A DNA stretch of 64,000 bases from a virus. Lineage: Duplodnaviria > Heunggongvirae > Uroviricota > Caudoviricetes. The stretch covers positions 1 through 64,000 of the IMG/VR virus record IMGVR_UViG_3300017971_002799, one strand, 5' to 3'. Made by a program: the position numbers and the translations under genes. Positions 1 through 46,391 of this stretch are shown one piece after another. The notes under the pieces were generated by a model. That model ran no database searches and was not told the origin of the DNA. It saw nothing but the letters and a program-made list of their open reading frames with translations. Position 1 is the first letter of the stretch; each line of letters starts with the position of its first letter.

Positions 1-220
1 CTATCAGCTCGGCCCAAATAGCCACGTAGGGACCTAGGTAGGGAGGTTTGTTTGGTCCTTTATCGCAATGCGGCAGGTGAGGGGAGGGGCCGGTTCGGGT
101 CCAATTTTTAAATATGTAAATTTTTAAGGACCTAGTATCGTACCGTCCGGTGAAATATTTGGGTTTGAAAATTTTTGTGGCGCGTAGGTGGGTTAGGTGA
201 GTGGTTATACAAGTAGGCAT

Positions 221-247
221 GAAAAAAGGGATGCCCGTAGACACCCC
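221..247 (-). terminator. Rho-independent terminator candidate at end of leftward operon
   Basis: On the minus strand a GGGGTG-loop-CATCCC hairpin is followed by a U6 run (A-run 222-227 on plus). It lies just downstream of ORF 289..618. Confidence 0.45.
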
Positions 248-288
248 TTTCTTCTGAGGGAAATGATGTTGGAGAATAAGCGCCTTAC

Positions 289-618
289 TCAGCGTTCCTC
301 CTTTGATATTATGTAACCATGTGAAATAGGTTTTGGGGTCGGCTTCCTTTCTCCTTCTTCTTCCTTTAGTAACTGCATTGTGGCGGAGGAGATGTGTATT
401 GTTGCTAAGTCTAGATCTTTTAGTATAATTTGTTGTTGTGGGTGTAATCTTTTTCTTAACTCAGAGATTTGGGTTACGATTTGTGCAAGTTCCGTCTTTG
501 CTTTTTTTATGTTCCCTAGATAAGCTTCTTTTATGGTATAGCAGAGAGTACAGGATCCATCTTCGTTTGTCACTGTGGCTTTCTGGCATCTAGGACACCA
601 GGAGGTTTCGTTGTTCAT
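289..618 (-). CDS. hypothetical zinc-ribbon protein with coiled-coil
   Basis: ORF track; CPRC...CTLC zinc-ribbon motifs; co-oriented and tightly packed with neighbours. Confidence 0.55.
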   Translation of the reverse strand: MNNETSWCPRCQKATVTNEDGSCTLCYTIKEAYLGNIKKAKTELAQIVTQISELRKRLHPQQQIILKDLDLATIHISSATMQLLKEEEGERKPTPKPISHGYIISKEER

Positions 619-634
619 TTGTTGGTTCCTCCTT

Positions 635-1039
635 TTAGTGGGGGTTCATCATTCGTAGTACATCTATCCCGGTTTTCTTTTTTATCTCCTCGTTTGCAGC
701 TTTTAGGTCTTCTAAGTCCATATTAGGGTTGACGAGGTTGAGGTAGCTCGACAGCACGACACCTCTTTTAGCTTCCCCAATGAAGTCGCCTTCGACAAAC
801 CGTAACACATCACGTTTGTCAATATCCCAGATAAAACTTTCGGACGCTTCGGGCATTTGAATGAAACAGAGATAGCCACTGTCGTCTGTAGCTATGTCCC
901 AGACCGGGAGTAGTTTAAGTCTCATAGCCTCGTTTTGACGTTCGGCTTGCTCCTCAGTTAACAGATAGCAGGATTTGATTTTACGAGTGTGTTCCAACTC
1001 TTTTTTCGTCCAGACCCAACCTTTTATATCGCCTAGCAT
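635..1039 (-). CDS. hypothetical protein
   Basis: ORF track; start lies next to a GGAGG-like SD (aaaggaggaaccataATG on the minus strand). Confidence 0.55.
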   Translation of the reverse strand: MLGDIKGWVWTKKELEHTRKIKSCYLLTEEQAERQNEAMRLKLLPVWDIATDDSGYLCFIQMPEASESFIWDIDKRDVLRFVEGDFIGEAKRGVVLSSYLNLVNPNMDLEDLKAANEEIKKKTGIDVLRMMNPH

Positions 1040-1155
1040 TATGGTTCCTCCTTTAAGACGTTGACTGCTCCAATTAACTCATTCGTAGCTACTTTGAAGG
1101 TGTTGGAGACTCCTGTTATACTGATTTCTACTTGTCCGGGATGCTGTGTCTTCCG

Positions 1156-1568
1156 TTACAACCTCTTCGAGAAGACACTAGCTGCTCCGAGTAATTCGTG
1201 GGTTGAAACTATAACAGATCGGTCACAACCTGTTATGTCTATTTGTATTTGGTCAGCCCTATCTGAACGTAGGGTAAGACTTTCGGTACTACTCGTGATT
1301 AGTGAACTACTATCGTTCTCGAATACTGGAACTAGTAATGGTATTTCAACTTTGATGTTCATTCGCCTCCCTCCTTTGATGGTATGTTTTCGTGGAAGTA
1401 CGTTTGGCCATACATTCGCCCGAAGTTGACGGTTTTACCGATTTCCCTTTGTGTATTAGTCACCTCGTTTGGGGGGATGTTGAATATTTTCGAGGCGGCT
1501 TCTACATGAGGATCAAGGTCTGTTAATGGAGATTCCCCTTCAACAAGGTCGTCAGGATCTATATACAA
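1156..1568 (-). pseudogene. Decayed 3' remnant of a family-A DNA polymerase gene (internally deleted, frame-shifted)
   Basis: ORF 1359..1568 contains YIDPDDL (PolA YIDPLPDL), DPHVEAASKIFNIPPNEV (DIHxxTAxxVFGV) and QREIGKTVNFGRMYG (PolA motif B / O-helix RRxAKxxNFGxxYG). The adjacent frame 1156..1362 contains KVEIPLLVPVFEND (PolA C-terminal VPLLVEVGxGENW). Motif A and motif C are absent. Confidence 0.55.
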
Positions 1569-1984
1569 CTCCTTTCACCTCCTTTTGGTTTATGGATTGG
1601 ACAGATGTAGCCTTCTGGATAGGTTTCGTTCGGGCCTTCACATTGACAGTTAATCTCTTCAGTTTCTGTTTTCTGTTGGTATTCTTTGAATCTTTCGTAA
1701 GCGCAGGCTGAACAGTAGCCGACTAGTGTGGAGGGGGCACCGCAAACCTTACAGGGTGGGCGTTCTTTCTCATCTTGCTCTTTAAAGAAAGCATCTAGTT
1801 GTGTCTCGTTGTCGTACACTTCTTTGTACATTATAGCGTAGCTAACGTTGTTGGTGACATAGGTTTTAAAAGCTTGTTTCCAACCTTCGGTGCGAAGATT
1901 ATCAGAAGCCTGGGACCACTCTTGAAAGCTATTGTAGTCGCTTTCGAGAAGGACTTTGGTCTCAACTCTTACTAGCTTTGACAT
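1559..1984 (-). CDS. hypothetical Cys-rich (zinc-binding) protein
   Basis: ORF track; CKVCG...CSAC...CQCEG...CPIH cysteine clusters. Confidence 0.55.
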   Translation of the reverse strand: MSKLVRVETKVLLESDYNSFQEWSQASDNLRTEGWKQAFKTYVTNNVSYAIMYKEVYDNETQLDAFFKEQDEKERPPCKVCGAPSTLVGYCSACAYERFKEYQQKTETEEINCQCEGPNETYPEGYICPIHKPKGGERSCI

Positions 1985-2297
1985 TGAGCTCCTCCAACAT
2001 TTTATCGATGACTTGAATCGCTTTGAAGACTTGTTTGGGGTCGTTGTTATCTATCCAACAGACAGAAAGTGCTCGTATTCTTTGGGCCACAGCCTCGACG
2101 GGACAATCTATTTCGGGAAACGTTGAACACTCTTTTCCTGTTTGTTGGAAAACATATTCACAACCATAACACTCAACATCTGCCGAGAAGTTTGTATTTC
2201 CGTGGGTACCTACATTGTCTACGTATCTACCTTCAAGGACGTTTATAGCCTGTTGTCGAAGCTTTTTTAGAGTGCTTCTATATGTTAGCTTTTCCAT
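1962..2297 (-). CDS. hypothetical protein
   Basis: ORF track; CYGC...C motif. Confidence 0.5.
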   Translation of the reverse strand: MEKLTYRSTLKKLRQQAINVLEGRYVDNVGTHGNTNFSADVECYGCEYVFQQTGKECSTFPEIDCPVEAVAQRIRALSVCWIDNNDPKQVFKAIQVIDKMLEELNVKASKS

Positions 2298-2542
2298 TAT
2301 ACAAGCTTGTCCTTTAAGGTATTATCCACATTTCCTTTTGTAAGAGCTGAGTTCATAATACTGCGGAGTTCTTCTTTAATCGCTCTTGTTTCGAAAACCC
2401 TTAGATTATATATGTCGCAGTAATCTCTAAAGGTTGTTTCCTCATCGCAGTGAAGGAGATGCCATAATAAAACAGCTTCTTCAGGTTTCTCGAGTGTAAG
2501 TGTTATAGGGTGGTATGTATCGTCTACGAATGCTTTTACCAT
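2297..2542 (-). CDS. hypothetical protein
   Basis: ORF track; start/stop abuts the neighbouring gene (translational coupling). Confidence 0.5.
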   Translation of the reverse strand: MVKAFVDDTYHPITLTLEKPEEAVLLWHLLHCDEETTFRDYCDIYNLRVFETRAIKEELRSIMNSALTKGNVDNTLKDKLV

Positions 2543-2629
2543 TACTCCTCCTTAAGCTCTTCTAGCGCTTCGATGTCGGGGCACCAACTGTCGTCGGGAT
2601 GTACCATACCGCAACGGTCGCATATATAG

Positions 2630-2851
2630 TTACCCATCGGAATTCTCCAACCAGGGATTCCCTATAACTAGCCAGGGATGGACAGTGTTTAGCAATGTGA
2701 AAAACTTCTCTTCCACTTCGGAGTCTTCAAACTCGATGGAGAGTTGATCCCCTTCTGAAACTTGTGCCTTGGTAGCTCCCATCCTTAAAGCTATTGCACA
2801 CCATTTATCTGCTAAGTACTTGTCGTGTTCTCGTCTATTTCTTATAACCAT
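2630..2851 (-). CDS. hypothetical protein
   Basis: ORF track. Confidence 0.4.
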   Translation of the reverse strand: MVIRNRREHDKYLADKWCAIALRMGATKAQVSEGDQLSIEFEDSEVEEKFFTLLNTVHPWLVIGNPWLENSDG

Positions 2852-2861
2852 TGGTATTTCC

Positions 2862-3182
2862 TTATCTGGGTGCGTGTGGAATTGTCATTCCGCGCTTAAG
2901 CATCTCGTCTTTAAGGTCAAAGTAAACCGGAGGAACGGACTGAAAGTAGGATGAGCCTTGATCATTCATTATGCTAAGCGTGAAGTTGTGAACTTTATTC
3001 ATAGCCGCGGAGAGATGGTAACGATTCATTTTGTGAATAGGAATACGTTGACCATTACTTCTTAACCATGTAGGTTTCTCGCGAATCTGTTGAGACTCTA
3101 CTACTTTCATATACTTCGCGAAGTCTTCAGAGTTCATCCTCTGGCGGGCGATCTCGATTGGGTCGACTTTGGATTCATTCAA
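2862..3182 (-). CDS. hypothetical protein
   Basis: ORF track. Confidence 0.5.
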   Translation of the reverse strand: MNESKVDPIEIARQRMNSEDFAKYMKVVESQQIREKPTWLRSNGQRIPIHKMNRYHLSAAMNKVHNFTLSIMNDQGSSYFQSVPPVYFDLKDEMLKRGMTIPHAPR

Positions 3183-3381
3183 AATAACCCTCCTCTCTTA
3201 ACCAGTTAGCAAAGCTTAGGCACTCTTCCTCTGTTTGGAAGATTACTTGAACAGAGTCGTGTATTGGTTTAATTGCTAATGCATTGTACTCAATAGCTTT
3301 CGGTACAATTTGTGAGAGAGCCTCCATTCGTTCTCTGTCAGCAGCTATTTGCACTAAAAGGTTATTACTCACTTCAACCAC
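3175..3381 (-). CDS. hypothetical protein
   Basis: ORF track; overlaps neighbours by a few nt (operon-like). Confidence 0.45.
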   Translation of the reverse strand: MVEVSNNLLVQIAADRERMEALSQIVPKAIEYNALAIKPIHDSVQVIFQTEEECLSFANWLREEGYFE

Positions 3382-3791
3382 TCCAATAGTTCGTTAACAT
3401 ACTCAATAGAGCAGGTTTTGCAATACATGTAGTTAGGGCGAGATGCTCCTCTGTACATCTCTTTAGAGGTTTTTGCTCTGAAGTGCATGCATCTATGGTC
3501 TGCTTGGATTTCCTTCTCGCAGTTACTACAAGGACCTGTTAGATCTTTACCTTTTAATATTACAGCTGCTTTAATCCTTAAAGTGCGAGGGATCTTTCTA
3601 GCTTGCAAAGCCTCTTTCAGGATTTCGAGATCTTTGATCGAGCAGGCTCTGCATGTACGGATGACTCTACCACCTCTGAGCCTTGAGATAAGTGTATATG
3701 ATTTAATGGGTATACGCTGGCCGCATTCAGGACAATCAGTTTCCTTTACTGAGGTGCTCAGATACATCGTTTTCCTCCGAACAGTGATCAC
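3369..3791 (-). CDS. hypothetical multi-zinc-ribbon protein
   Basis: CPECG...CRAC...CSNC...CKTC motifs. Confidence 0.55.
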   Translation of the reverse strand: MITVRRKTMYLSTSVKETDCPECGQRIPIKSYTLISRLRGGRVIRTCRACSIKDLEILKEALQARKIPRTLRIKAAVILKGKDLTGPCSNCEKEIQADHRCMHFRAKTSKEMYRGASRPNYMYCKTCSIEYVNELLEWLK

Positions 3792-3977
3792 ACACTACTT
3801 GTTCAGACTCGTAGTAGTCGAGTTCGAACTCTCTTTTACACGTAAGGCAGTGTCGTATATAATATCTTTCCTCGCGGTAACGTACTATAGGTCTCTCCAT
3901 AAGCATTCCCCCTTCTCTTTATTAAGGTCAAAGCCTCAGTTACAGCCCCCAACGAATTGAGGACTGTAGGCTGGGGT

Positions 3978-4448
3978 TTAGACTTCAGAAAGATCTATGC
4001 GATCTTGCGTCAGCTGCTTGATTTTGTTTAGTGCGTCGATCAGTTGAGTATTCTCATCAGTAAGTCTGGTTACTTCTGATTCCAGATACTCTAGATGATT
4101 TTCGATGCAAACACCGGCAGCATCGTCGATGATGTCTAGAATCTGATTGTCGAGACTATTGTTTACAGGAACGGCCTCGCTTACAGGTTCTTCCTTCGAC
4201 TTCATCAGCTTGGGCTCGTCTTCAATCTTCTGTCCGCAGTTGATATGGATGTGAGCCGTTTTGTAAGAAGTGGCTTTACCACATTTAGCACACTCAAGGT
4301 GTTGACGGGGTTTACCATTCTTCTCGTAGTGTTTGTACATAAGGCGCAGTTCTGGATGCTCCTCATTTATATGTACAAACTTGTCTCTGACGACTTTGCC
4401 GCAGACGGGACATGGACGAGTCTTCTTCTGTACCTCTGACATAATCAC
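3978..4448 (-). CDS. hypothetical zinc-finger / coiled-coil protein
   Basis: CPVCG...CAKCG motifs followed by a C-terminal heptad-like region. Confidence 0.55.
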   Translation of the reverse strand: MIMSEVQKKTRPCPVCGKVVRDKFVHINEEHPELRLMYKHYEKNGKPRQHLECAKCGKATSYKTAHIHINCGQKIEDEPKLMKSKEEPVSEAVPVNNSLDNQILDIIDDAAGVCIENHLEYLESEVTRLTDENTQLIDALNKIKQLTQDRIDLSEV

Positions 4449-4538
4449 CTCCTTTTTTATTTGAGGTCACAACCTCAGGGACAGATCCAACGTGAGCAGG
4501 GAAATGGTTACGTTGGATGTGTCGTCTAAGCTTGTGAT

Positions 4539-4883
4539 CTAACTCGTTTTATTTTTTATAACTCCTTGGCTCGCGAGATAGTCAATAAGCTCCTCTTCCT
4601 TTAGGAGTCTACACCACTCAGGAAAAGGTCTACTGTACGACGAGTAAATTACTCGACGGTCAAGAGAGCACGACGTATGGATCTTGGTCTCTTCTTCTGT
4701 GTAGTGCGGACAAGTCTTACAATCCGTTATCATTATATAACGACGCCCTTTTATTTCGTTAGAGGGTTTGTCTATTTGTATAAACGGTTGTAGACTTTCA
4801 CAGGAGACGCAGAATTGTGCAGGGTTTGCCTCTTCGTGCTCTGAATGTATCCAGCCGCAGGTTGTACATCTAAAATAAGCCAT
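4539..4883 (-). CDS. hypothetical zinc-ribbon protein
   Basis: CTTCG...CVSC...CKTC motifs. Confidence 0.55.
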   Translation of the reverse strand: MAYFRCTTCGWIHSEHEEANPAQFCVSCESLQPFIQIDKPSNEIKGRRYIMITDCKTCPHYTEEETKIHTSCSLDRRVIYSSYSRPFPEWCRLLKEEELIDYLASQGVIKNKTS

Positions 4884-4991
4884 TAGACATACTCTACAAT
4901 GTTTAGCTCGAAGTCTGTAATGCCTTCGCGTTCTTCGTTTGAGGCGATAATGTTTGCTATGACTTCGTCTGCAGCTTCTTCATGGGTTGCC

Positions 4992-5348
4992 TCAAAGGTT
5001 ATCTCGAGATTGTAAGTTATCATTACTCCTCCTTTCGGTGTTTAGCACTTTAGACCCGTGACTTTTTGCATAGTCGAGGAATTCAGGATCAAATCTATTC
5101 TTTTCTTGGAATTTTGTTTTCAGTTCTTCAACGAGTTCTTCTTCGGTTGGTGGTTCAGGTAGGAATTTGATTTTGATTGGGTCAATCTCGCCTATTGTAT
5201 GGTAAGCGACTTGCTCACAAGTTTCACAATGCCAGACAGCGTAGGCGACACCACAATCGATTTGGACAACAGGCCAAATTTCTCTACCATCACAACAAAT
5301 CAGAACTGTCTTCTTATCGGGGTCTCCGCTTCTAACTCGTTCCATCAT
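4992..5348 (-). CDS. hypothetical protein
   Basis: ORF track; CETC motif. Confidence 0.5.
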   Translation of the reverse strand: MMERVRSGDPDKKTVLICCDGREIWPVVQIDCGVAYAVWHCETCEQVAYHTIGEIDPIKIKFLPEPPTEEELVEELKTKFQEKNRFDPEFLDYAKSHGSKVLNTERRSNDNLQSRDNL

Positions 5349-5510
5349 TTTGACGCCTTCAATAGTTCGGTGAGACCCTTTGACTTACGAATGACGTTGT
5401 CAACAGCTTCATCCCTACCATCACTATGGGGTAGGTCATATATGAAGGTAACGTCTTCCGTGATTTCCTTGATTAACATCAAGATTGTACTTTTCCCCAT
5501 ATTGTCCTCC

Positions 5511-5711
5511 TTATTGCTTCATTGATTTGAGCATAGACTTCATCGAGTCACATTTCTCAATAGCAGAGTTAATGGCTCGTATTCGATCTAGTGCGCTTTT
5601 AGCGTTGTCGATGTGTTTCAGGTCCTTCTCGATTTCCTTGAGTATCTCTTTACATATCTCGATGCTAGTCACACCCTTCTCCTTTCGTGTGATCAGGTTT
5701 GACAGACCCAC
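5511..5711 (-). CDS. hypothetical small protein
   Basis: ORF track; coiled-coil-like composition. Confidence 0.4.
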   Translation of the reverse strand: MGLSNLITRKEKGVTSIEICKEILKEIEKDLKHIDNAKSALDRIRAINSAIEKCDSMKSMLKSMKQ

Positions 5712-6195
5712 ACGAAGATCCCCCAGGAGTTACGCAGTAGAGGAAAACCTGTTTATCGAGCTCGTTAGCGAACCGTTGAGCAATTTCTTCTCCACGTTTA
5801 AATCTTCCTATCTCTGGTTGTTCGTCTTTGTATAGGATGTTTAACATATTCCAACCTTGATTAGGAAGATACTCACGCCCTTCTGAGACAACTACAAACG
5901 TCTCGTGTTTGTCTCTAACATCGTAACCCGTGTCCTCGAATAGAGCGTCGGAGTTAGAATGCCAAGGTCCCTTGTGATGTTCAATTGTACCGTCCTCGAG
6001 AGTAAATGAGAGTACAGCTCCGCCGAATCCGAGGTTGGATCCCCCAGTTGGACAGAAGTAAATGTTCTGTGCACAGGCTTCTCGCATTGCCACCATCCAA
6101 GTACCTCGAGACCCTACAAGCTTCCTGTAGACAAGACCTGAGGCGTCTTGTGCCGCGCTCATTGAGTGGTCATGTTGCTTTATAAGTAGATCCAT
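5665..6195 (-). CDS. hypothetical protein
   Basis: ORF track; no family recognised by eye. Confidence 0.5.
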   Translation of the reverse strand: MDLLIKQHDHSMSAAQDASGLVYRKLVGSRGTWMVAMREACAQNIYFCPTGGSNLGFGGAVLSFTLEDGTIEHHKGPWHSNSDALFEDTGYDVRDKHETFVVVSEGREYLPNQGWNMLNILYKDEQPEIGRFKRGEEIAQRFANELDKQVFLYCVTPGGSSCGSVKPDHTKGEGCD

Positions 6196-8204: not shown

Positions 8205-9077
8205 CTAAGCATCATGATTCCCTCTTACAGAAAATCCATTCTTCCGTAAGTATTGAATAAAGGTGTTATACTTTTCGTCGTTAATAAAGCTCCCAGAAAG
8301 TACATGCTCGTATCGGGCCTTATCCCTAACAGCGAGCTTGGATGTGACATCGAAGGCGAATTCGGCGGAATGGACAAAGTCGGATTTTAATACAAACTCG
8401 GATTTTTCGGCGACTTTGGATTTCGTCACGGTTCGAACGTTTTCACAAACCTTACACTCCTCATACCAGGAATCAGGACTAGAAGGCAGGTCTAAGCAGG
8501 GACCCCACTGACAAATGTGGACTTTCACATCTTCATAGCAGTGGCAGTTGAAACAGTAGTAGTGAATTTTGTGAATAGAATAGGGGATTACGTTATTACA
8601 GTGACGACAGAGAATCGGTTGGAGGTTGATCTCTCTGTTGAGCCCGGCGTGGTCTGTGAGCAGTTGGTCTAAGACTTGCATGTTGGTGTAGGACATTTCT
8701 TCTCTCGGCGGATATTTAGTCTTAGATCTCTTCTTCTCCTCTACGTGAGCTTCAAGTGTCTCAAGTACTTTGAGGAACGTCTCCTCCGTGATAACTTTGA
8801 TATCGTATTCATTCCATTTCTCCATAGGCAATTCCTCTTCGGGTAGCTCTTCTAGAAGGTTTAGAAGCTCTCCCTCTGTTATACGAGGTATACCTAGAAC
8901 TATGGCTTTAGCTTCCTTTGATCCAGGCTTCTCACCAACAACGAGATAGTCAGTGTTTCGAGAGACAGAGGAACCAACGAAACCACCTGCTTTTCGTGCT
9001 GCTTCAGAGGCTTGGTTACGAGTGACAGCGAGCTTGCCGGTGAACACAAACACCTTGCCCTCAGCTAGAGTAGCCAT
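8205..9077 (-). CDS. BRCT-domain protein with C-terminal Cys/His-rich region
   Basis: N-terminal [10 protein letters not shown]...[40 protein letters not shown]...[14 protein letters not shown] matches the BRCT fold of NAD-ligase C-termini. The C-terminus has CRHC...CFNCHC...CKVC clusters. Confidence 0.55.
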
Positions 9078-22853: not shown

Positions 22854-23806
22854 CAAGAGACTCTAGGTGGATTTGACAGAGTAAAAGATCTTAACCGGGT
22901 TTGATCTTGGGGTTTTGCAAGTGGGCGAACACCTTCCTTTCCGCACCGGGAAGGTTAGTAACTCACTTACTTCAAACTTTTCTTGGTTCCTATCAGTTAT
23001 TATGAAGTGCCTCCCGTACTTTTTATGTTCCGGACTGATGGGAGCCAACAAGAGCTTGAGGATCGAGACAACCTCCGAAGTTCTTGAACTCAACCTCGAA
23101 AGGGGTTGTATCACTGGGAAGAGGCTGGACCCGAGGACAGACTGGCATCCTGAGGGAATTGAACAACCGCCTTATTGTAAAGCTCTCAGGCGAATGCGGA
23201 CGGAGTGGAGTGGTGCGGGGTGAAATAGCCCGCGAGTAGGGTCCAGTCCTCACATCAACACGGCATATGGCGCTAGAGAGTAGGCGTCACCGGTAACCAA
23301 CCCGGAGATCTTGGACAACGTATCTGAGATCTAGGTTTTCGACGGAGAACCGAATTCGTGCGGGGTTTGATTCCCAGCGGCCGTGACCAGAAAACTTATG
23401 ATCGGAGGATAAAAAGGAAGGACTAGTACCCCTTCTGATTATCCCTCGGTTTTGTGTAGATACTAGTTAAGACACGAAGTCGAAATTTGCTTCCTTCCGA
23501 CGGAAGCAGTTGAGAAAGTAGGGAATAAACCCTCTCCGATCACCAATGTACATACTAGACTTGTTAACTTGGGAGTTCATAAAACTATATCTCCTAATGC
23601 AAGAACTTTTTATTACACTTGCAATACCTTATATCAAAGATCCTAAACTCGGTAACAAAATTCAACACCACTTAATCAGTTGCCAGGTGTTGAGAACGAT
23701 GAGTTTAAATGAATTACCTAGTATCGCGAGAGATAAGATACTCTGGCAAGGTAGACTAATGTTAGTACTGTTACTAGGTACAATCGTTTTCAAAGAGTTA
23801 TACTAA

Positions 23807-31077: not shown

Positions 31078-31294
31078 CATAGCTGACATTAGATTCGGAG
31101 ATAAGGTACACTATAAACCACCTTACTACGGCGAGGATAGGTGGGAGAATGGTAAAGTAAAAGAAATACGTTCGGATGTAGACGATGCGATATGGGTAGT
31201 ATTCCACTGCGCAGGAGAATGGGAAAGATTTACAGAATACACTGCTGCAATGACTAAAATAAAAGACCTATACCCAGGGTGGAGACATGGCTAG
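31061..31294 (+). CDS. hypothetical protein
   Basis: ORF track. Confidence 0.45.
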   Translation: MGLMLNIADIRFGDKVHYKPPYYGEDRWENGKVKEIRSDVDDAIWVVFHCAGEWERFTEYTAAMTKIKDLYPGWRHG

Positions 31295-31505
31295 CTTTAC
31301 TTGTGATAATTCGAACTGTCTTCACCAGTGGGACGACGACATCATGGAAGGTAGAATCGAATGCCCCAAGTGTGGATTGTCACGTCCTAGAGTAATAAGA
31401 GCTACCTTTATTGAGCTAAATAGATCATGTACAACAATGGAATTCAATTTCGGACCTGGGCAGAGATATGGAACCCCTGTATATCACCTTAGCCAGAACA
31501 ACTAG
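31287..31505 (+). CDS. hypothetical zinc-ribbon protein
   Basis: CDNSNCLHQW...CPKCG motifs. Confidence 0.45.
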   Translation: MASFTCDNSNCLHQWDDDIMEGRIECPKCGLSRPRVIRATFIELNRSCTTMEFNFGPGQRYGTPVYHLSQNN

Positions 31506-39864: not shown

Positions 39865-40040
39865 GTAAAGGCTACACAGAACCAATACCTATAATAGTCG
39901 CAATAATTGTAGGAACTCTTATCGCTTCAACAATAAATCTAGCCTCACAAGGAACCTACCTTGCGATCGTTCCCGCAATCACTGCAACCATAGCTTTAGG
40001 AATGTATGTATATCACTTAAGGAGAAAGCTGCGTGATTGA
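39861..40040 (+). CDS. small membrane protein (59 aa)
   Basis: Not in the ORF track; MSKGYTEPIPIIVAIIVGTLIAS...AIVPAITATIALGMYVYHLRRKLR; overlaps the polymerase start. Confidence 0.35.
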   Translation: MSKGYTEPIPIIVAIIVGTLIASTINLASQGTYLAIVPAITATIALGMYVYHLRRKLRD

Positions 40041-42414
40041 CCTAAGACTTTGCAATTGTGAAGAGTGTCCTCTATTCGGCTCCGGTATGGTTGTTACCAG
40101 ACGACCTTTTATATCTCCATACAATGTGATATACAAAGCAGTTACACGCAACAACGTTTTTCTGCAGCACTTTCGGATAGCTGAAGTCGAAGAGATCGAC
40201 CCTGTAGAAGTTCTTCTTATTGGAATGGCCCCCGCTTATGAAGAACTTCGCCAAGGAGATTTCTTTGTAGGCCAATCGGGTTTGCTCCTCAATGCTGTTA
40301 TGGGACAGTTAGACTACGATAGCTACGCTGTCTCTAACGTTTTGCTTTGTAGAATACCTGAAGAAGCTACACAATCTGAAATAAACAAAGCCGCTGATTG
40401 TTGCTTTCCAAGGCTGGAAGCTCAAATAAAGGAGTACCAACCAAAGTTATTAGTTGCTTTGGGAAACCTGCCTTTACACACTCTAACAGGTTTAAACATA
40501 GGTATAATGACGGCCGAAGGAAGGGTTCTCCCCAGTGACTATGGAGACGTTCTCGCAGTACAACACCCTGCAGCTGTTTTAAGATTTCCAGACAACTACC
40601 CAGACTTCCTAGAAGCTTTAAAAGGCGGTCTCAGATGGAAGTATGGAACTTACAAACAAATCACAGACGAACCTAATACTGTAGTTGTCGATGAAAACAA
40701 TATGGCCGATGTTTGTCAAAGAATCGAAAACGCCGGACTGGCAGCTATAGATCTCGAAACAACTCGTACAGGACTTAACCCTTATGGCCGAGAGCCTGAT
40801 GGTATTCGTTGTATGGCTATCACAATCGAACCAACGACAACATATATAGTACCAGGAGAAAGCTCTCCATACTGGCCTGAGCACCCTAACTTCATAAATC
40901 ATCCTGCTTTGATGGAAGTTATTCCTAAAGTTAAAGGTGTTTACCACAACGGACAATTTGATTGTGCTTTCATGTGGCAGACTGGCTATCGAAACAAAAT
41001 GTATTACGATACGATGATAGCACATCAAATAATGGATGAGAGGCCGAGATCCCATGGTTTGAAGGTATTAGCAAGAAAGAGATTGGGAGCGCCTGACTGG
41101 GAACATGATATAAAAAGGTATTTGCCTACTGGGAAAAGTAGTTATGACCTAATCCCCGACGACGTGCTCTATAGATATGCCTCTTTCGATACGATAGCCA
41201 CATATTTACTCTATCAACAATTCGAATCGGAAACTCGAGGGACGTTTTTCGACAAGTTCCTTATGAGAGCCGCTAACATGTTTGTAGATCTTAGGCACAC
41301 GGGAATTCGAATAGATCCTTGGGTTCTCATGCAAGCTGATGAGCTACTGGAGCAAGATCTGGACCAGAAAATAAAAGAGCTTTACGAAATCATCGGCCAT
41401 TATATAAACCCTCTGTCGTGGGCACAAGTTGCTGAACTACTGTACGATGAATTAGAACTACCACAAATAGCTGGACGTTCAACATCGGTTGACATACTTA
41501 AGAGATTACCTTATCATCCCGCTATAGAAAAGATTATAGAAATTAGACAGGCATCCAAGTTACGTTCTACTTACGTTTTATCTCTAATAGGGTTTATGGA
41601 TAACGATTATAGAGTACATCCAACAATCAAACTAGCAAGCACTGTAACAGGGAGAGCTTCGTCTGAAGATCCCTCTGTCATGACAATTGTGAGAAACAAT
41701 AACATCAAAAAGATGTATCTGCCCGAAGACGGTTCTCTCTTTATGGAAGCTGATGCAAAGCAGATGGAAGTAAGATGGTTTGCTATTTACAATCAAGACG
41801 AGGTGTTAAGAAAACTCTTAAACGAGGGCGACCCTCATGACATGATTAGAAAGCACATCTTAAAACTCACAGGGAAAGATTACCCAAGAGTGAGAGTAAA
41901 AGGTGCTGTTTTTGGTAAGATGTATGGCCGAGGAATTGATTCCTTCATGGCTGAATTTGGTGTACCTGCAGATGAAGCACAAGAGATCATTAATGGTATA
42001 ACAGAATTACTACCTACACTAAAACAGTACAACGATAGAATCGAGCACGATATAAAAACACTCGGTTACTTAACCAGCTACTTCGGAAGAATAAGAAGAT
42101 TCGGATTGTTAACGAAACGATCTTTTTATGAAGCACTCAAACAGGGAGTCAACTTTCCAATTCAATCAGCTGCCTCAGATACTAACTTATGGACGATGGT
42201 TCATCTCTATGAGAATGCTGATAAGTTTGGTATAGTGCCGCACTTCCCAGTTCATGACTCTGTTATCATGAGTATACAAGACAAGGATATGGTTCCGCTT
42301 GTGAAGAAGGAAATGGAGACCTTTAGTCAGGAAATTGTTAACAACGAAATGGAATTCGACATTGAAGTTAAAATAGGCCCTAACTGGGGCGAAACAAAGT
42401 TGTTAGAGGTATAA
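40033..42414 (+). CDS. Family A DNA polymerase with 3'-5' exonuclease and N-terminal UDG-family-4-like domain (catalytic Glu replaced)
   Basis: N-terminal LLIGMAPAYEELRQGDFFVGQSGLLLN (UDG4 GEAPGxxExxxGxPFVGxAGxLL, with E->M) and QHPAAVLR (UDG motif B). Exo I AIDLETT, Exo II YHNGQFDCAF, Exo III YASFDTIATY. Pol motif A EADAKQMEVRW, motif B RVKGAVFGKMYG, motif C VHDSV. Confidence 0.85.
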   Translation: MIDLRLCNCEECPLFGSGMVVTRRPFISPYNVIYKAVTRNNVFLQHFRIAEVEEIDPVEVLLIGMAPAYEELRQGDFFVGQSGLLLNAVMGQLDYDSYAVSNVLLCRIPEEATQSEINKAADCCFPRLEAQIKEYQPKLLVALGNLPLHTLTGLNIGIMTAEGRVLPSDYGDVLAVQHPAAVLRFPDNYPDFLEALKGGLRWKYGTYKQITDEPNTVVVDENNMADVCQRIENAGLAAIDLETTRTGLNPYGREPDGIRCMAITIEPTTTYIVPGESSPYWPEHPNFINHPALMEVIPKVKGVYHNGQFDCAFMWQTGYRNKMYYDTMIAHQIMDERPRSHGLKVLARKRLGAPDWEHDIKRYLPTGKSSYDLIPDDVLYRYASFDTIATYLLYQQFESETRGTFFDKFLMRAANMFVDLRHTGIRIDPWVLMQADELLEQDLDQKIKELYEIIGHYINPLSWAQVAELLYDELELPQIAGRSTSVDILKRLPYHPAIEKIIEIRQASKLRSTYVLSLIGFMDNDYRVHPTIKLASTVTGRASSEDPSVMTIVRNNNIKKMYLPEDGSLFMEADAKQMEVRWFAIYNQDEVLRKLLNEGDPHDMIRKHILKLTGKDYPRVRVKGAVFGKMYGRGIDSFMAEFGVPADEAQEIINGITELLPTLKQYNDRIEHDIKTLGYLTSYFGRIRRFGLLTKRSFYEALKQGVNFPIQSAASDTNLWTMVHLYENADKFGIVPHFPVHDSVIMSIQDKDMVPLVKKEMETFSQEIVNNEMEFDIEVKIGPNWGETKLLEV

Positions 42415-44061: not shown

Positions 44062-44661
44062 TTGCAAATAATGGACATCATTCCTTATGGGAAAAAGTAT
44101 CCAGACGTTACTAAGCTACTATATGACAAAGGCTATCTAAGGAGATATCCAAAACAACACAAAAGAGATGATCTACAGTACGACGATGGCATAGACATTG
44201 TCTACGATCTGAAAAACCTACCACCTGCAAAGTTTACGGAAGCATCTGACTTGTTACTACTAGCTGCCTATACAGAAGCACAAAGATATAAAGACGCTAC
44301 GTACAAATTCGCAAAGTTCATGGTGCACCTCAACAGAACAGCGCAAGGGAAAAAGCAGGTAAAGAAAGAAAGAGGTTATATAGCAAGTAGACATCGCGAT
44401 CCTGAAATCATGGTATACGGAGAACAAGGTCTTGGATACGAACTACCGGAAGAAGAGAAAAAGCCTTTCTTGATCAACAAAGTACAAGAGATACTAGGAA
44501 TTCCCGATAGCCCTAGCCCTGGTCCTTATGTCAAAAAACAACAACCATATAAAGTAATCAGACTAACAATTGGAATCAGAGCTGGCAAGATGTGGGAAGG
44601 TGTTCCAGGTCTTCTTATTCCTGGTGTGACTAATGTTAGCGAAGAAGCTACAGAAGAATGA
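44062..44661 (+). CDS. hypothetical protein; candidate terminal (priming) protein for the adjacent PolB
   Basis: The stop overlaps the PolB start (gaagaATGAaagg) and the protein is Lys/Tyr/Ser-rich. There is no sequence-level proof; the call rests on synteny with protein-primed replicons. Confidence 0.3.
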   Translation: MQIMDIIPYGKKYPDVTKLLYDKGYLRRYPKQHKRDDLQYDDGIDIVYDLKNLPPAKFTEASDLLLLAAYTEAQRYKDATYKFAKFMVHLNRTAQGKKQVKKERGYIASRHRDPEIMVYGEQGLGYELPEEEKKPFLINKVQEILGIPDSPSPGPYVKKQQPYKVIRLTIGIRAGKMWEGVPGLLIPGVTNVSEEATEE

Positions 44662-46391
44662 AAGGAATAGCAACCTTTGACATCGAGGCGGTAGCATGGG
44701 ACCAACCTATCGCTGTTGGCTTCTACGATGGAGAAAAGTATTTCGAGTTCCTTAAGATTAATGAAGATCACGATGTTATTGGTAGTTTCCTCGACTTCCT
44801 AAAGGTAAACTACCAAGGAATAAGAATCTACGCTCACAACGCTGGTGAGTATGATAACAAATTCATACTCCAAAGTCTACATCGTCGAGGTCAACGTGTA
44901 GCTATGAGTTTGGGTCAAGCCAGGCTTGAGTGGCTAGGTTTGCATATAACATTCGAAGACAGCTACCTAATGCTAAGTAGAAGACTGAGCGCTATCTGTT
45001 ACGCCTTCAATATCCCTATGAAACTAGACTGGGATCACTCTCAAACGAAGAACATTTGGGAGATGGGTGATCTAGAAGAGTTTAGAGCCTACCTGAAAAG
45101 AGATTGTGTATCTCTATCTGAAGCCATAGCAGCATATGCACAAGAACTCATCAGCAAATTCGGGGTTGCCCCCTCTACAACCATGGCTCTGACATCAGTA
45201 AAGGCCTTCAATAAAAGATTCTATCCCGTTAGTAAAATAAACGCTAACTTCGAATACGAAAACAGAATTAGACAAGCAACCTTTGGAGGGCGAAACGAAG
45301 TATATAACAAACATGGCTTAGGTATTTACTTTTACGACGTTAGAAGTATGTACGTATCTTGCTATGATACACCTGTTCCTATAGGCAAAATGTCTTGGAC
45401 TTCAAACGAGTTAGAGAAAGGAACAGTAACAGAGGCTATTGTAAAAGTTCCCACTTGGATGAACATTGGGCCTCTTCCCTATAGATATAGACCTTACAAC
45501 AACAGTGGATACGGACATTTAATGTTTCCAGTAGGAACTTTTCCTGGCGTTTGGGATACCATTGAACTAATGAATGCTGTAAATCTAGGTTGCGACGTTA
45601 CAGTTATAAAACAACTAGCCTGCGAAGAATCTCCCATACTAGACAAATTTGGAAAATACATTGCATACCTAAGAGAACAAGCAGAGAATGAAGAAAGAGA
45701 AAGAATCTGGAAAAACGTTGGTGTGCGATTAAGTGGAAAGTTTGGACAGCATCGTATCATGCAGGAGATTAAGCACGCAACAGAGATAGAGGACTATGAA
45801 GGTTGGTGTGCTATAGATGACGACGAAATATACTTCGAAAGAATGGTAGCAAAAGACCCAAAAGGATCGCCTTACATCAAGCCAGCCGTTAACATGAGAG
45901 TAAGATCAGAAGCCAGGATAAGACATCTACGAAAATTGCTTGAAGCAGAAGATAAAGGAACATTATACTATTGCGACAACGACTCCGTTTGCTCTAGTAC
46001 GCCTTTATACAATGGAAGGAAGGCTGGGGAGTTGCAGCTCTTAGACTACGCTAAAGAAGCTTTCTTTATTAGATGTAAGTTCTACGGTTACCTAAACAGA
46101 AAAGGACACCTGAATCAAAGAACAGCAGGATATAGGGATTTTAAATTAACGGAACAAGACTTCAGAGATCTGCTACAGGGAAAAACCTTGTACAATACCT
46201 TCCAAAGTCTCAGTCACTGGAAAAGTTCTTTAACAGAAGAAGGTGTAAAGATGATCGACCGTAGCAGGTCAGTAGCGATGTCTAGAGGGTTTGACAATAG
46301 AGAGTCAGTGGGATTGAAGACCCGCCCTATAGAGTTAGGTATGAAGGATGGTGAAGTGTTTAGAGTTAAAAGAAATGAGGAGAAAGAGTAG
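44658..46391 (+). CDS. Compact family B DNA polymerase of phi29/protein-primed type (577 aa)
   Basis: Exo I FDIEAV, Exo II YAHNAGEYDNKFIL (phi29 YHNLKFDGAF), Exo III YLKRDCVSLSEAI (phi29 YIKNDIQIIAEAL), motif A FYDVRSMYVS (DxxSLYPS), motif B KNVGVRLSGKFGQ (KxxxNSxYG), motif C YYCDNDSV (YCDTDS). Confidence 0.65.
   Translation: MKGIATFDIEAVAWDQPIAVGFYDGEKYFEFLKINEDHDVIGSFLDFLKVNYQGIRIYAHNAGEYDNKFILQSLHRRGQRVAMSLGQARLEWLGLHITFEDSYLMLSRRLSAICYAFNIPMKLDWDHSQTKNIWEMGDLEEFRAYLKRDCVSLSEAIAAYAQELISKFGVAPSTTMALTSVKAFNKRFYPVSKINANFEYENRIRQATFGGRNEVYNKHGLGIYFYDVRSMYVSCYDTPVPIGKMSWTSNELEKGTVTEAIVKVPTWMNIGPLPYRYRPYNNSGYGHLMFPVGTFPGVWDTIELMNAVNLGCDVTVIKQLACEESPILDKFGKYIAYLREQAENEERERIWKNVGVRLSGKFGQHRIMQEIKHATEIEDYEGWCAIDDDEIYFERMVAKDPKGSPYIKPAVNMRVRSEARIRHLRKLLEAEDKGTLYYCDNDSVCSSTPLYNGRKAGELQLLDYAKEAFFIRCKFYGYLNRKGHLNQRTAGYRDFKLTEQDFRDLLQGKTLYNTFQSLSHWKSSLTEEGVKMIDRSRSVAMSRGFDNRESVGLKTRPIELGMKDGEVFRVKRNEEKE

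Follow-up and report, generated by a model that had tools for sequence, protein, structure and literature searches.

Why should a phage that encodes a complete family-A DNA polymerase (PolA) carry, 38 kb away, a second and far shorter piece of polymerase-like sequence: is that piece the debris of a lost gene, or a gene in its own right? The question arises from a stretch of 64,000 nucleotides of a tailed phage (Caudoviricetes; positions 1 to 64,000 of IMG/VR record IMGVR_UViG_3300017971_002799), hereafter the window, near the left end of which an earlier note had placed the internally deleted remnant of a second PolA gene (1156-1568). Our analysis points elsewhere. The polymerase-like sequence belongs to one minus-strand open reading frame (ORF), orfA, whose product (MYIDPDDLVEGESPLTDLDPHVEAASKIFNIPPNEVTNTQREIGKTVNFGRMYGQTYFHENIPSKEGGE, obtained by minus-strand translation of 1359..1568) is, as judged by alignment, one contiguous piece of PolA: the hairpin of helices N and O that bears motif B. 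We consider it probable that orfA is a functional, translated small phage gene that encodes this hairpin only, and that the hairpin has been exapted.

One polymerase segment in a complete reading frame

The orfA product matches the Pfam family DNA_pol_A (PF00476) with 37.0 bits (E 2.5e-9; curated cut-off 34.3), residues 17-58 corresponding to positions 183-224 of the 381 in the profile, the region of motif B and the O-helix. Matches in the PDB are to chains of Bst, Klenow and Taq Pol I (E 1e-4 to 4e-3), and phmmer aligns residues 7-58 with Bst 375-424. The motif B signature of family-A polymerases (R-x3-K-x3-F-x3-Y-G) is present, and R...K..NFG..YG is found at a single place when the window is translated in six frames, and nowhere in shuffled sequences. 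Among GenBank phages the top matches are PolA genes of Herelleviridae (phage K: ORF86/88/90). Both the O-helix segment that the earlier note had recognised and the family-A origin that it had proposed are borne out by the Pfam and PDB matches.

The extent of the homology is another matter. Three PolA signatures had been reported (YIDPxxDL, the O-helix segment and, in the adjacent frame, a C-terminal VPLLVxV), collapsed into ~400 nt. When the region is searched with full-length PolA queries (tblastn), the only match is 1365..1526, with no C-terminal piece; there is no internally deleted gene, only a single contiguous segment of ~65 residues that amounts to a complete ORF and runs from just past motif A to just past the O-helix. 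The first signature is present, as YIDPDDL, but instead of standing apart it forms the N-terminal margin of this one collinear piece. At the other end collinearity with PolA reaches the last residue of orfA (tblastn with PolA fragments), the tail following the O1-helix region 'FGLAQRLGISxKEAAE' minus 4 residues (P0104 residues 37-92 against window 1520..1365). What does stand is the absence of motifs A and C, in agreement with the narrow span of both the Pfam match and the tblastn match. Motif A (DYSQIELR, with the catalytic Asp) is absent, orfA beginning 18 residues ahead of its D-P-H, and neither motif C (HDE) nor the C-terminal VPLxV...W was found in the neighboring orfB or in any frame of 1000-1700 (Pfam, PDB and a custom hidden Markov model, HMM); no further PolA piece was found in any frame of that interval. 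Because motifs A and C, palm and thumb are all absent, the protein as deduced cannot polymerize.

The third signature (IPLLVPV) lies in orfB and is a chance match. This ORF has its own Shine-Dalgarno (SD) sequence (AAGGAGG, 1370..1376) and no match in Pfam (E<=1), the PDB (E<=10) or PHROGs (E<=1). A custom HMM built from 64 PolA C-termini, for which the resident PolA is the top scorer among window ORFs, gives orfB -0.2 bits and rank 40 of 369; for the motif [VI]PL.V itself, translating the window in six frames gives 8 occurrences where 4 are expected. Together these data exclude orfB as a PolA C-terminus. Nor is there a conserved downstream partner gene: translations downstream of other proteins of the orfA kind (described below), compared by eye, resemble neither orfB nor each other. 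To judge from these searches, orfB is unrelated to PolA and lies outside the polymerase-derived module.

A pseudogene may be recognized by a broken frame or by the loss of its start codon or ribosome-binding site; orfA shows none of these. Its TTG start is preceded, at a distance of 9 nt, by the GGAGG core of the SD sequence (1578-1582). The gene overlaps the upstream ORF (1559..1984; 141 aa, Cys-rich) by 10 nt and is joined to orfB by an ATGA stop/start overlap. It is the third-from-last member of a long minus-strand array of small genes that extends from ~21 kb (21070) down to 289, and its composition (GC 0.45; GC at third codon positions 0.46) matches that of the window (average 0.42). JGI gene callers also called it as a gene (three contigs of ~87.8 kb), and the window, which corresponds to contig Ga0309773_1000552 (87.8 kb) of JGI metagenome 3300028840, is 100% identical to locus L001 over 11,568 nt. 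Rfam found no group I intron or other RNA family near orfA (the window gives tRNA only), and promoter and terminator scans of window 1-4000 returned nothing above shuffled sequences.

The structure predicted by AlphaFold2 from a 24-sequence alignment consists of two helices joined by a loop (block pLDDT, the predicted local distance difference test, 87-95), with both tails disordered. In Foldseek searches of the PDB, 50 of the 50 top matches are Pol I fingers (38-47% identity), most superposing with a root-mean-square deviation of 0.6-1.0 Å over 36-38 residues; the E-values are only ~0.06 because the model is so short. The core residues D19-P-H21, R41, K45, N48, F49, Y53 and G54 have as Klenow equivalents D732/H734, R754, K758, F762 and Y766, and H734 of Pol I has a role in nucleotide selection. 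Compared with the fingers of Klenow, Bst and KlenTaq, orfA is alike in the residues of the nucleotide-binding face (D-x-H ... R-x-x-x-K-x-x-N-F-G-x-x-Y-G). It differs in being 69 residues long instead of >550, in having no palm, thumb or exonuclease, in its acidic, predicted disordered termini (the protein has a net charge of -8), and in carrying P, R, Q and F at the equivalents of Klenow I733, L764, M768 and F771, positions that are mostly polar across its stand-alone relatives.

Nothing is missing from motifs A, B and C of the resident PolA, which can be aligned with Taq over its whole length. Because its O-helix region is barely similar to orfA (BLASTP E 0.088), orfA is not, on this comparison, a recently duplicated copy of that gene, nor is it a part that the enzyme lacks. 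The same marginal similarity agrees with the earlier remark that the sequence at the left end is the more canonical, Pol I-like of the two. A specific resemblance between them (DPH, a basic residue at position 51, M52) was discounted, these features being common among the stand-alone proteins generally. The resident enzyme is apparently a member of the UDG-fused phage PolA subfamily of bioRxiv 10.1101/2025.03.26.645540; 2 kb from it is a second polymerase (44658..46391, plus strand), of the protein-primed family B type (PF03175, 119 bits).

Table 1. Coordinates of orfA, its parts and the genes compared with it (window positions unless a locus is named).
Feature	Coordinates	Strand	Description and basis
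orfA	1359..1568	-	69 codons; TTG start 1566-1568, stop 1359-1361; ORF list, Pfam, orthologue
Shine-Dalgarno of orfA, AAGGAGGTG	1576..1584	-	Read off the sequence; inside the 3' end of ORF 1559..1984
PolA-homologous core, residues 17-58	1395..1520	-	Pfam and PDB alignments, Foldseek superposition
Helix 1, residues 20-29 (predicted), equivalent to PolA helix N	1482..1511	-	AlphaFold2, block pLDDT 94
Helix 2, residues 38-57 (predicted), equivalent to PolA helix O / motif B	1398..1457	-	AlphaFold2, block pLDDT 95-87
Acidic C-terminal tail, residues 58-69, FHENIPSKEGGE, predicted disordered	1362..1397	-	pLDDT 54-62; tblastn; alignment
orfB	1156..1362	-	68 codons, just downstream of orfA
Resident PolA	40033..42414	+	Fusion of UDG, 3'-5' exonuclease and PolA; PolA 194.8 bits
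P0013/P0070 gene pair	L005 223..513 vs L007 162..452		Stand-alone hairpin genes on near-identical phage contigs

Two other members of the small-gene array are unusual phage cargo: an SPFH/Band 7 protein (508 aa, 13071..14597, minus strand) and a BRCT-domain protein (290 aa, 8205..9077, minus strand).

Conservation in a distant relative

When 1.84 billion representative proteins were searched exhaustively with HMMER, one clear orthologue of orfA emerged, P0002 (60 aa, E 5e-10, 52% identity). The two proteins have derived, non-canonical features in common – YGQ, the 4-residue deletion, F-x-E-x-I-P and an acidic end (YGQxxFxExIP) – the P0002 counterpart of the orfA tail being FREDIPLQDDEED. P0002 comes from L002, a 20.5-kb Logan contig of a distant relative of the window phage: 12 proteins match at 25-53% identity, the two are alike in layout around a divergent promoter region flanked by divergent operons, and at the DNA level just a few short patches are still alignable. 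The place in the operon differs, the P0002 gene coming after an SNF2 helicase gene.

Identity between the two genes is 0.69, 0.70 and 0.37 at first, second and third codon positions, that is, conserved at the first two and near-random at the third. Because of this distribution the comparison indicates purifying selection on the protein. SD sequence and start codon are present in both genes. Neither a lack of purifying selection nor disruption in relatives, the further marks of a pseudogene, was found, on the basis of this single orthologue. The earlier note had held that its reading would fall if related genomes carried an intact small ORF devoid of polymerase homology: the intact ORF exists, and it carries the polymerase homology, so that half of that expectation is borne out and half is not.

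Searches for closer relatives found little. GenBank phages gave no match (megablast, window 1-6000), and scans of IMG/VR with the orfA protein and with the upstream 141-aa ORF gave no relatives either. A scan of IMG/VR with a Rad52-like alignment found 7 loci that have only that protein in common and hold no orfA-like gene. In JGI metagenomes a two-sequence alignment of the orfA kind found nothing that could be confirmed and did not bring back even the source contig, so that the collection presumably does not contain that sample; word-indexed protein searches returned only orfA itself and P0002.

The comparison with L002 also brought to light an intergenic element of ~127 nt (window 23262..23388, plus strand; L002 5599..5716, minus strand) that is 82% identical between the two phages. 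RNAalifold gives it a 6-bp closing stem followed by a 3' ACCA and five hairpins, one of them T-arm-like (GGGGTTTGATTCCC), and 8 of its 38 pairs show compensatory double changes. It is called by neither ARAGORN nor Rfam (E<=1); tRNA-Met follows ~420 nt downstream, and the element is probably a structured RNA that resembles a tRNA with additional arms. A separate Rfam tRNA match (12677..12871, minus strand; 30.3 bits, cut-off 29) spans 195 nt, would need a very large insertion and is unconfirmed by ARAGORN: the match is either false or marks a tRNA-like gene that is interrupted.

Stand-alone N/O-helix proteins in other phages

The HMMER search and a follow-up profile search yielded ~20 stand-alone proteins of 47-151 aa with their own starts, non-PolA flanks and the same PolA core (D-[PI]-H-x3-A-x3-F ... 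V-T-x2-Q-R-x2-K-x2-N-F-G-x2-Y-G). We refer to these as minis and define the provisional family as proteins of no more than ~150 aa whose only PolA similarity is to profile positions ~174-235, with non-PolA flanks or none. Frameshifted bacterial polA fragments, adapter chimeras and tandem artefacts were excluded (P0003, P0015, P0058, P0071, P0072, P0097, P0107, P0152); P0147, which at first sight joins a helix-turn-helix domain to PolA, is no mini fusion but seems to be an incomplete PolA cut off by the end of its contig. All 11 minis scanned against Pfam, orfA included, match DNA_pol_A above the cut-off at profile positions ~174-235. orfA belongs to the family by size and span (69 aa, profile 183-224) and by a polar residue at the equivalent of Klenow L764 (NFG-R51-MYG) with R754, K758, F762 and Y766 kept.

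DNA context was available for seven lineages: the window, five from metagenomes (L002; P0011, on contigs up to 31 kb from three sources; P0070 and P0013; P0173; P0081) and the cultured Ralstonia phage RP13. In all seven the mini is part of an array in which small phage genes, closely packed, all point the same way. Full-length PolA queries found no other PolA part around the five metagenomic minis (within 8-10 kb at most on each side, less at contig ends). PHROGs contains two matching families, phrog_38792 (62 aa, function not assigned), to which orfA has a weak but specific match (E 3.5e-4), and phrog_30466; literature searches found no paper that discusses these ORFs, even though they are catalogued there. 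The other small phage ORFs (RP13, phrog_38792, phrog_30466, P0002, P0011, P0013/P0070, P0081, P0173) resemble orfA in PolA segment, size class and setting, and all are annotated as hypothetical. They differ in their flanks: a Zn-ribbon in P0013/P0070, a motif-A-like N-terminus in RP13 ORF9 and P0173, and a longer PolA-like C-terminal extension in P0081. The derived tail of the window protein occurs among minis in P0002 only.

A column-by-column comparison of 18 minis with 112 PolA-like sequences separates two classes of position. D19, A25, R41 and K45 (Klenow D732, –, R754, K758) are invariant in both sets, and H21, F29, Y53 and F/Y49 are kept in 17 of the 18 minis and in 96-100% of the PolA-like sequences (H21 and F/Y49 being invariant there). 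At other positions the minis have lost hydrophobicity. At position 51 (Klenow L764) a hydrophobic residue is present in 96% of PolA-like sequences vs 28% of minis (p 7e-11), the residues in minis including E, Q, H, R, K, S and D (72% polar vs 4%); position 20 (I733) is hydrophobic in 96% vs 50% (p 1e-6), position 55 (M768) in 80% vs 39% (p 6e-4) and position 58 (F771) in 76% vs 28% (p 1e-4). Proline at position 20 is enriched, occurring in 8 of 18-20 minis vs 4 of 112-114 PolA-like sequences. Positions 43 and 47, which by helical periodicity point toward helix N, show no significant difference: they are hydrophobic in 82% and 100% of PolA-like sequences and in 100% and 94% of minis. The polar shift fits a hairpin that would no longer be packed against the rest of the fingers.

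RP13 provides the cultured example. Its mini, ORF9 (BCG50027.1; LC554890.1 3254..3454), annotated as hypothetical, lies in a long direct terminal repeat (ORF1-12 = ORF265-276) and so is present in two copies, ORF9 and ORF273 (167896..168096). It adjoins an exonuclease III gene, and the left copy is ~1.6 kb upstream of an NAD-dependent ligase gene; the full PolA of RP13 (ORF88) is ~59 kb away. Mini and PolA of this phage are 37% identical from motif A through the O-helix, with an 8-residue deletion, and have in common the rare sequence QRKY.KTIN.

The P0013/P0070 pair shows how the core may change. Between these two genes, the non-PolA flanks are 92% identical in nucleotides, with a nonsynonymous divergence (dN) of 0.03, a synonymous divergence (dS) of 0.35 and a dN/dS of ~0.09. 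The PolA-like core (~110 nt) is only 69% identical (dN 0.31, dS 0.71) and has sharp boundaries; the P0013 core is 70% identical to a real PolA vs 54% to the P0070 core. On these figures the core looks like one that has been exchanged, or that evolves far faster than its otherwise constrained gene. Mutagenesis of the kind caused by diversity-generating retroelements was rejected, as the changes extend to every base class and to third positions.

Zinc-binding modules recur near these genes. The gene just upstream of orfA (1559..1984, minus strand) has a C-terminal Cys-rich, zinc-ribbon-like region (CKVCG...CSAC...CQC...CPIH), and set beside the minis with an N-terminal Zn-ribbon or zinc-knuckle fusion (P0013/P0070, P0122, P0175) it may reflect gene fission or fusion. 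Elsewhere in the window a 72-aa ORF (31287..31505, plus strand) has a Zn-ribbon (NCLHQWDDD...IECPKCG) like the N-terminus of P0013/P0070 (BLASTP E 5e-7), followed by a degenerate ...FNFGPGQRYG with no Pfam PolA match: it is either a Zn-ribbon module alone or a strongly degenerated second mini.

What a free-standing polymerase hairpin may do

The course of events that we propose is as follows. Long ago a Pol I-like polymerase gene would have given rise to a fragment that was then retained as a separate protein, an exaptation. Its product would be the helix N - loop - helix O hairpin of the fingers with short disordered acidic tails, in which the residues of the deoxynucleoside triphosphate (dNTP) face (D19, H21, R41, K45, N48, F49, Y53, G54) were kept and positions that are hydrophobic in ~96% of full polymerases turned polar, as would suit a free-standing hairpin. 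What the data show is the homology, the intact frame, the conservation under selection, the membership of the family and the predicted fold; that orfA is expressed and has a binding partner and a biological role we infer: its protein would act in trans, presenting the dNTP-binding face of an O-helix. Acting as a decoy, it might tie up a factor of the host, or of a defence system, that recognizes or targets polymerases of family A; or it might rival one of these enzymes in binding a partner.

We hold, tentatively, that orfA imitates the polymerase O-helix as a molecular mimic or decoy, and we prefer this to a nucleotide-binding role without regarding either as established. We lean toward it because of the swapped or fast-evolving core of P0013/P0070, the resemblance of the RP13 mini to the PolA of the same phage, the location of these genes in small-gene arrays and a terminal repeat, and the existence of documented defences: systems that act on phage DNA polymerases are known (PMC11348598). 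Counting orfA among decoys on the strength of its array or terminal-repeat setting and a fast-changing core in P0013/P0070 is a circumstantial argument. A broader and still more speculative possibility, which we would put forward only with reserve, is that many phage lineages have repeatedly carved the same ~40-residue N/O hairpin from family-A genes, with the core exchanged as a cassette so that it tracks the real polymerase, and that the product serves as a decoy, aimed at immune or inhibitory factors of the host that bind the conserved active-site face of polymerases, or as a trans-acting regulator of polymerase.

Several observations weigh against a functional hairpin family. The function of every mini is deduced from conservation alone, and for the lineage of the window there is just one orthologue, at a different place in the operon. 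The minis were found through the conserved motif, so that retention of motif residues is partly an ascertainment bias (the polar shift at 20, 51, 55 and 58 is not such an effect); the 112 PolA-like sequences were chosen by similarity to minis and are mostly canonical Pol I fragments. The AlphaFold2 confidence depends on an alignment in which real polymerases are included, and a hairpin of 37 residues may be incapable of folding alone. There is no conserved neighbor gene to indicate a pathway. Net charges of minis are heterogeneous, from -10 to +19, with no common electrostatic logic, which rules out a shared acidic character. Finally, mean core identity is 0.50 between minis and 0.49 between minis and PolA: monophyly is unsupported by overall identity, the family may be polyphyletic, with some members being transient fragments, and repeated independent origin appears as likely as a single one.

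A role in binding nucleotides is the closest competitor of the decoy, and a doubtful one. The hairpin would retain the triphosphate site of the open fingers, bind a dNTP or NTP, pyrophosphate or some small phosphate-rich molecule, and buffer, sense or sequester it while the phage is infecting. All of the compared minis have D19, R41 and K45, nearly all have H21, F/Y49 and Y53, and Zn-ribbon or zinc-knuckle fusions in some minis might allow oligomerization or contacts with nucleic acid. A synthetic peptide of E. coli Pol I offers a parallel: it reportedly spans residues 728-777, essentially the same stretch as a mini. By the titles of the papers on it, this 50-residue peptide binds substrate and DNA (Mullen, Shenbagamurthi and Mildvan 1989; Mullen, Vaughn and Mildvan 1993; both in the reference list of PMC4082485), and in Pol I itself the O-helix residues R754/R702, F710 and Y714 are implicated in nucleotide selection (PMC10520511). 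The peptide, however, is a laboratory construct, whereas the window gene is natural, maintained, and altered in its surface and tails. Isolated peptides are expected to bind weakly, stoichiometric sequestration seems costly, a net charge of -8 is unfavorable for binding polyanions and the protein has no effector domain; nor would this role account for a core that is swapped or evolves fast, as in P0013/P0070.

It is unlikely that orfA is a non-functional, decaying remnant of a second PolA, left by internal deletion or by polymerase replacement, and that its appearance as an ORF is incidental. In favor of a remnant are the PolA ancestry of the sequence and its lack of motifs A and C, its place near the contig edge among genes with no assigned function, the frequency of polymerase swapping in tailed phages (PMC11348598) and the many short metagenomic PolA matches that are truly frameshifted or artefacts (P0071, P0072, P0097, P0107, P0152, P0015). 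Against this, the ORF is intact, with its own start and a strong SD sequence and translational coupling to both neighbors; its composition is that of the genome; no second PolA piece is detectable around it; and an orthologue of the same architecture shows codon-position constraint in a phage whose neutral DNA is unalignable but for patches. A family-wide shift to polar residues with the dNTP face kept is also unlike the outcome of decay. Yutin et al. 2024 (PMC11348598) describe phage genomes with more than one polymerase-related gene and propose host-defence selection as the driver, and in this respect the window is alike. The swaps published there, however, replace whole genes in situ in the replication module, not 38 kb off at the end of a small-gene operon, and the extra PolAs keep a palm with catalytic residues, unlike orfA; fingers fragments that stand alone did not come up in a term search of the paper.

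Least probable is that orfA is an exon or trans-complementing piece of a polA split by an intron or homing endonuclease, or a DNA-level element: a spare copy of a homing-endonuclease target that resists cleavage, serves as repair template and is kept open only through gene conversion from a real polA. PolA genes of Herelleviridae carry introns and homing endonucleases. The best GenBank phage matches are just such PolAs, listed as several ORFs (phage K), split PolAs are known in Bacillus phages, and the sharply bounded core replacement in P0013/P0070 is compatible with gene conversion; but the window has no group I intron (Rfam), two neighbors scanned against Pfam (the 141-aa and 134-aa ORFs) have no endonuclease domain, the DNA around the five metagenomic minis (8-10 kb at most on each side) contains no further piece of PolA, the resident enzyme is complete and leaves nothing to complement, its O-helix region is far too diverged for gene conversion, and conservation is at the protein level, with third positions randomized and start codon and SD sequence conserved in both orthologues. 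A proposed coincidence of the right edge of the core with the intron site of SPO1-like phages failed for Goe3, whose PolA is one uninterrupted ORF.

What the locus offers is, probably, a known domain fragment in a new, independent role. Genes of this kind are now labelled 'hypothetical protein', or wrongly 'DNA polymerase', in phage genomes, and for viromic surveys of PolA the consequence is that DNA_pol_A matches above threshold in ORFs of <150 aa ought not to be counted as polymerases or as pseudogenes. If the functional reading is true, a subdomain of a well-studied enzyme would have found a second life as an independent small phage protein, and RP13 ORF9 and the window gene would be a concrete, accessible example of how phages recycle enzyme fragments; RP13, being cultured, provides an experimental system. 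If the decoy reading is true as well, minis would form a previously unrecognized class of counter-defence proteins that mimic a fragment of an enzyme, and through them one might find what in the host, a cellular factor or a defence system, recognizes the polymerase O-helix, a point that work on polymerase swapping has raised.

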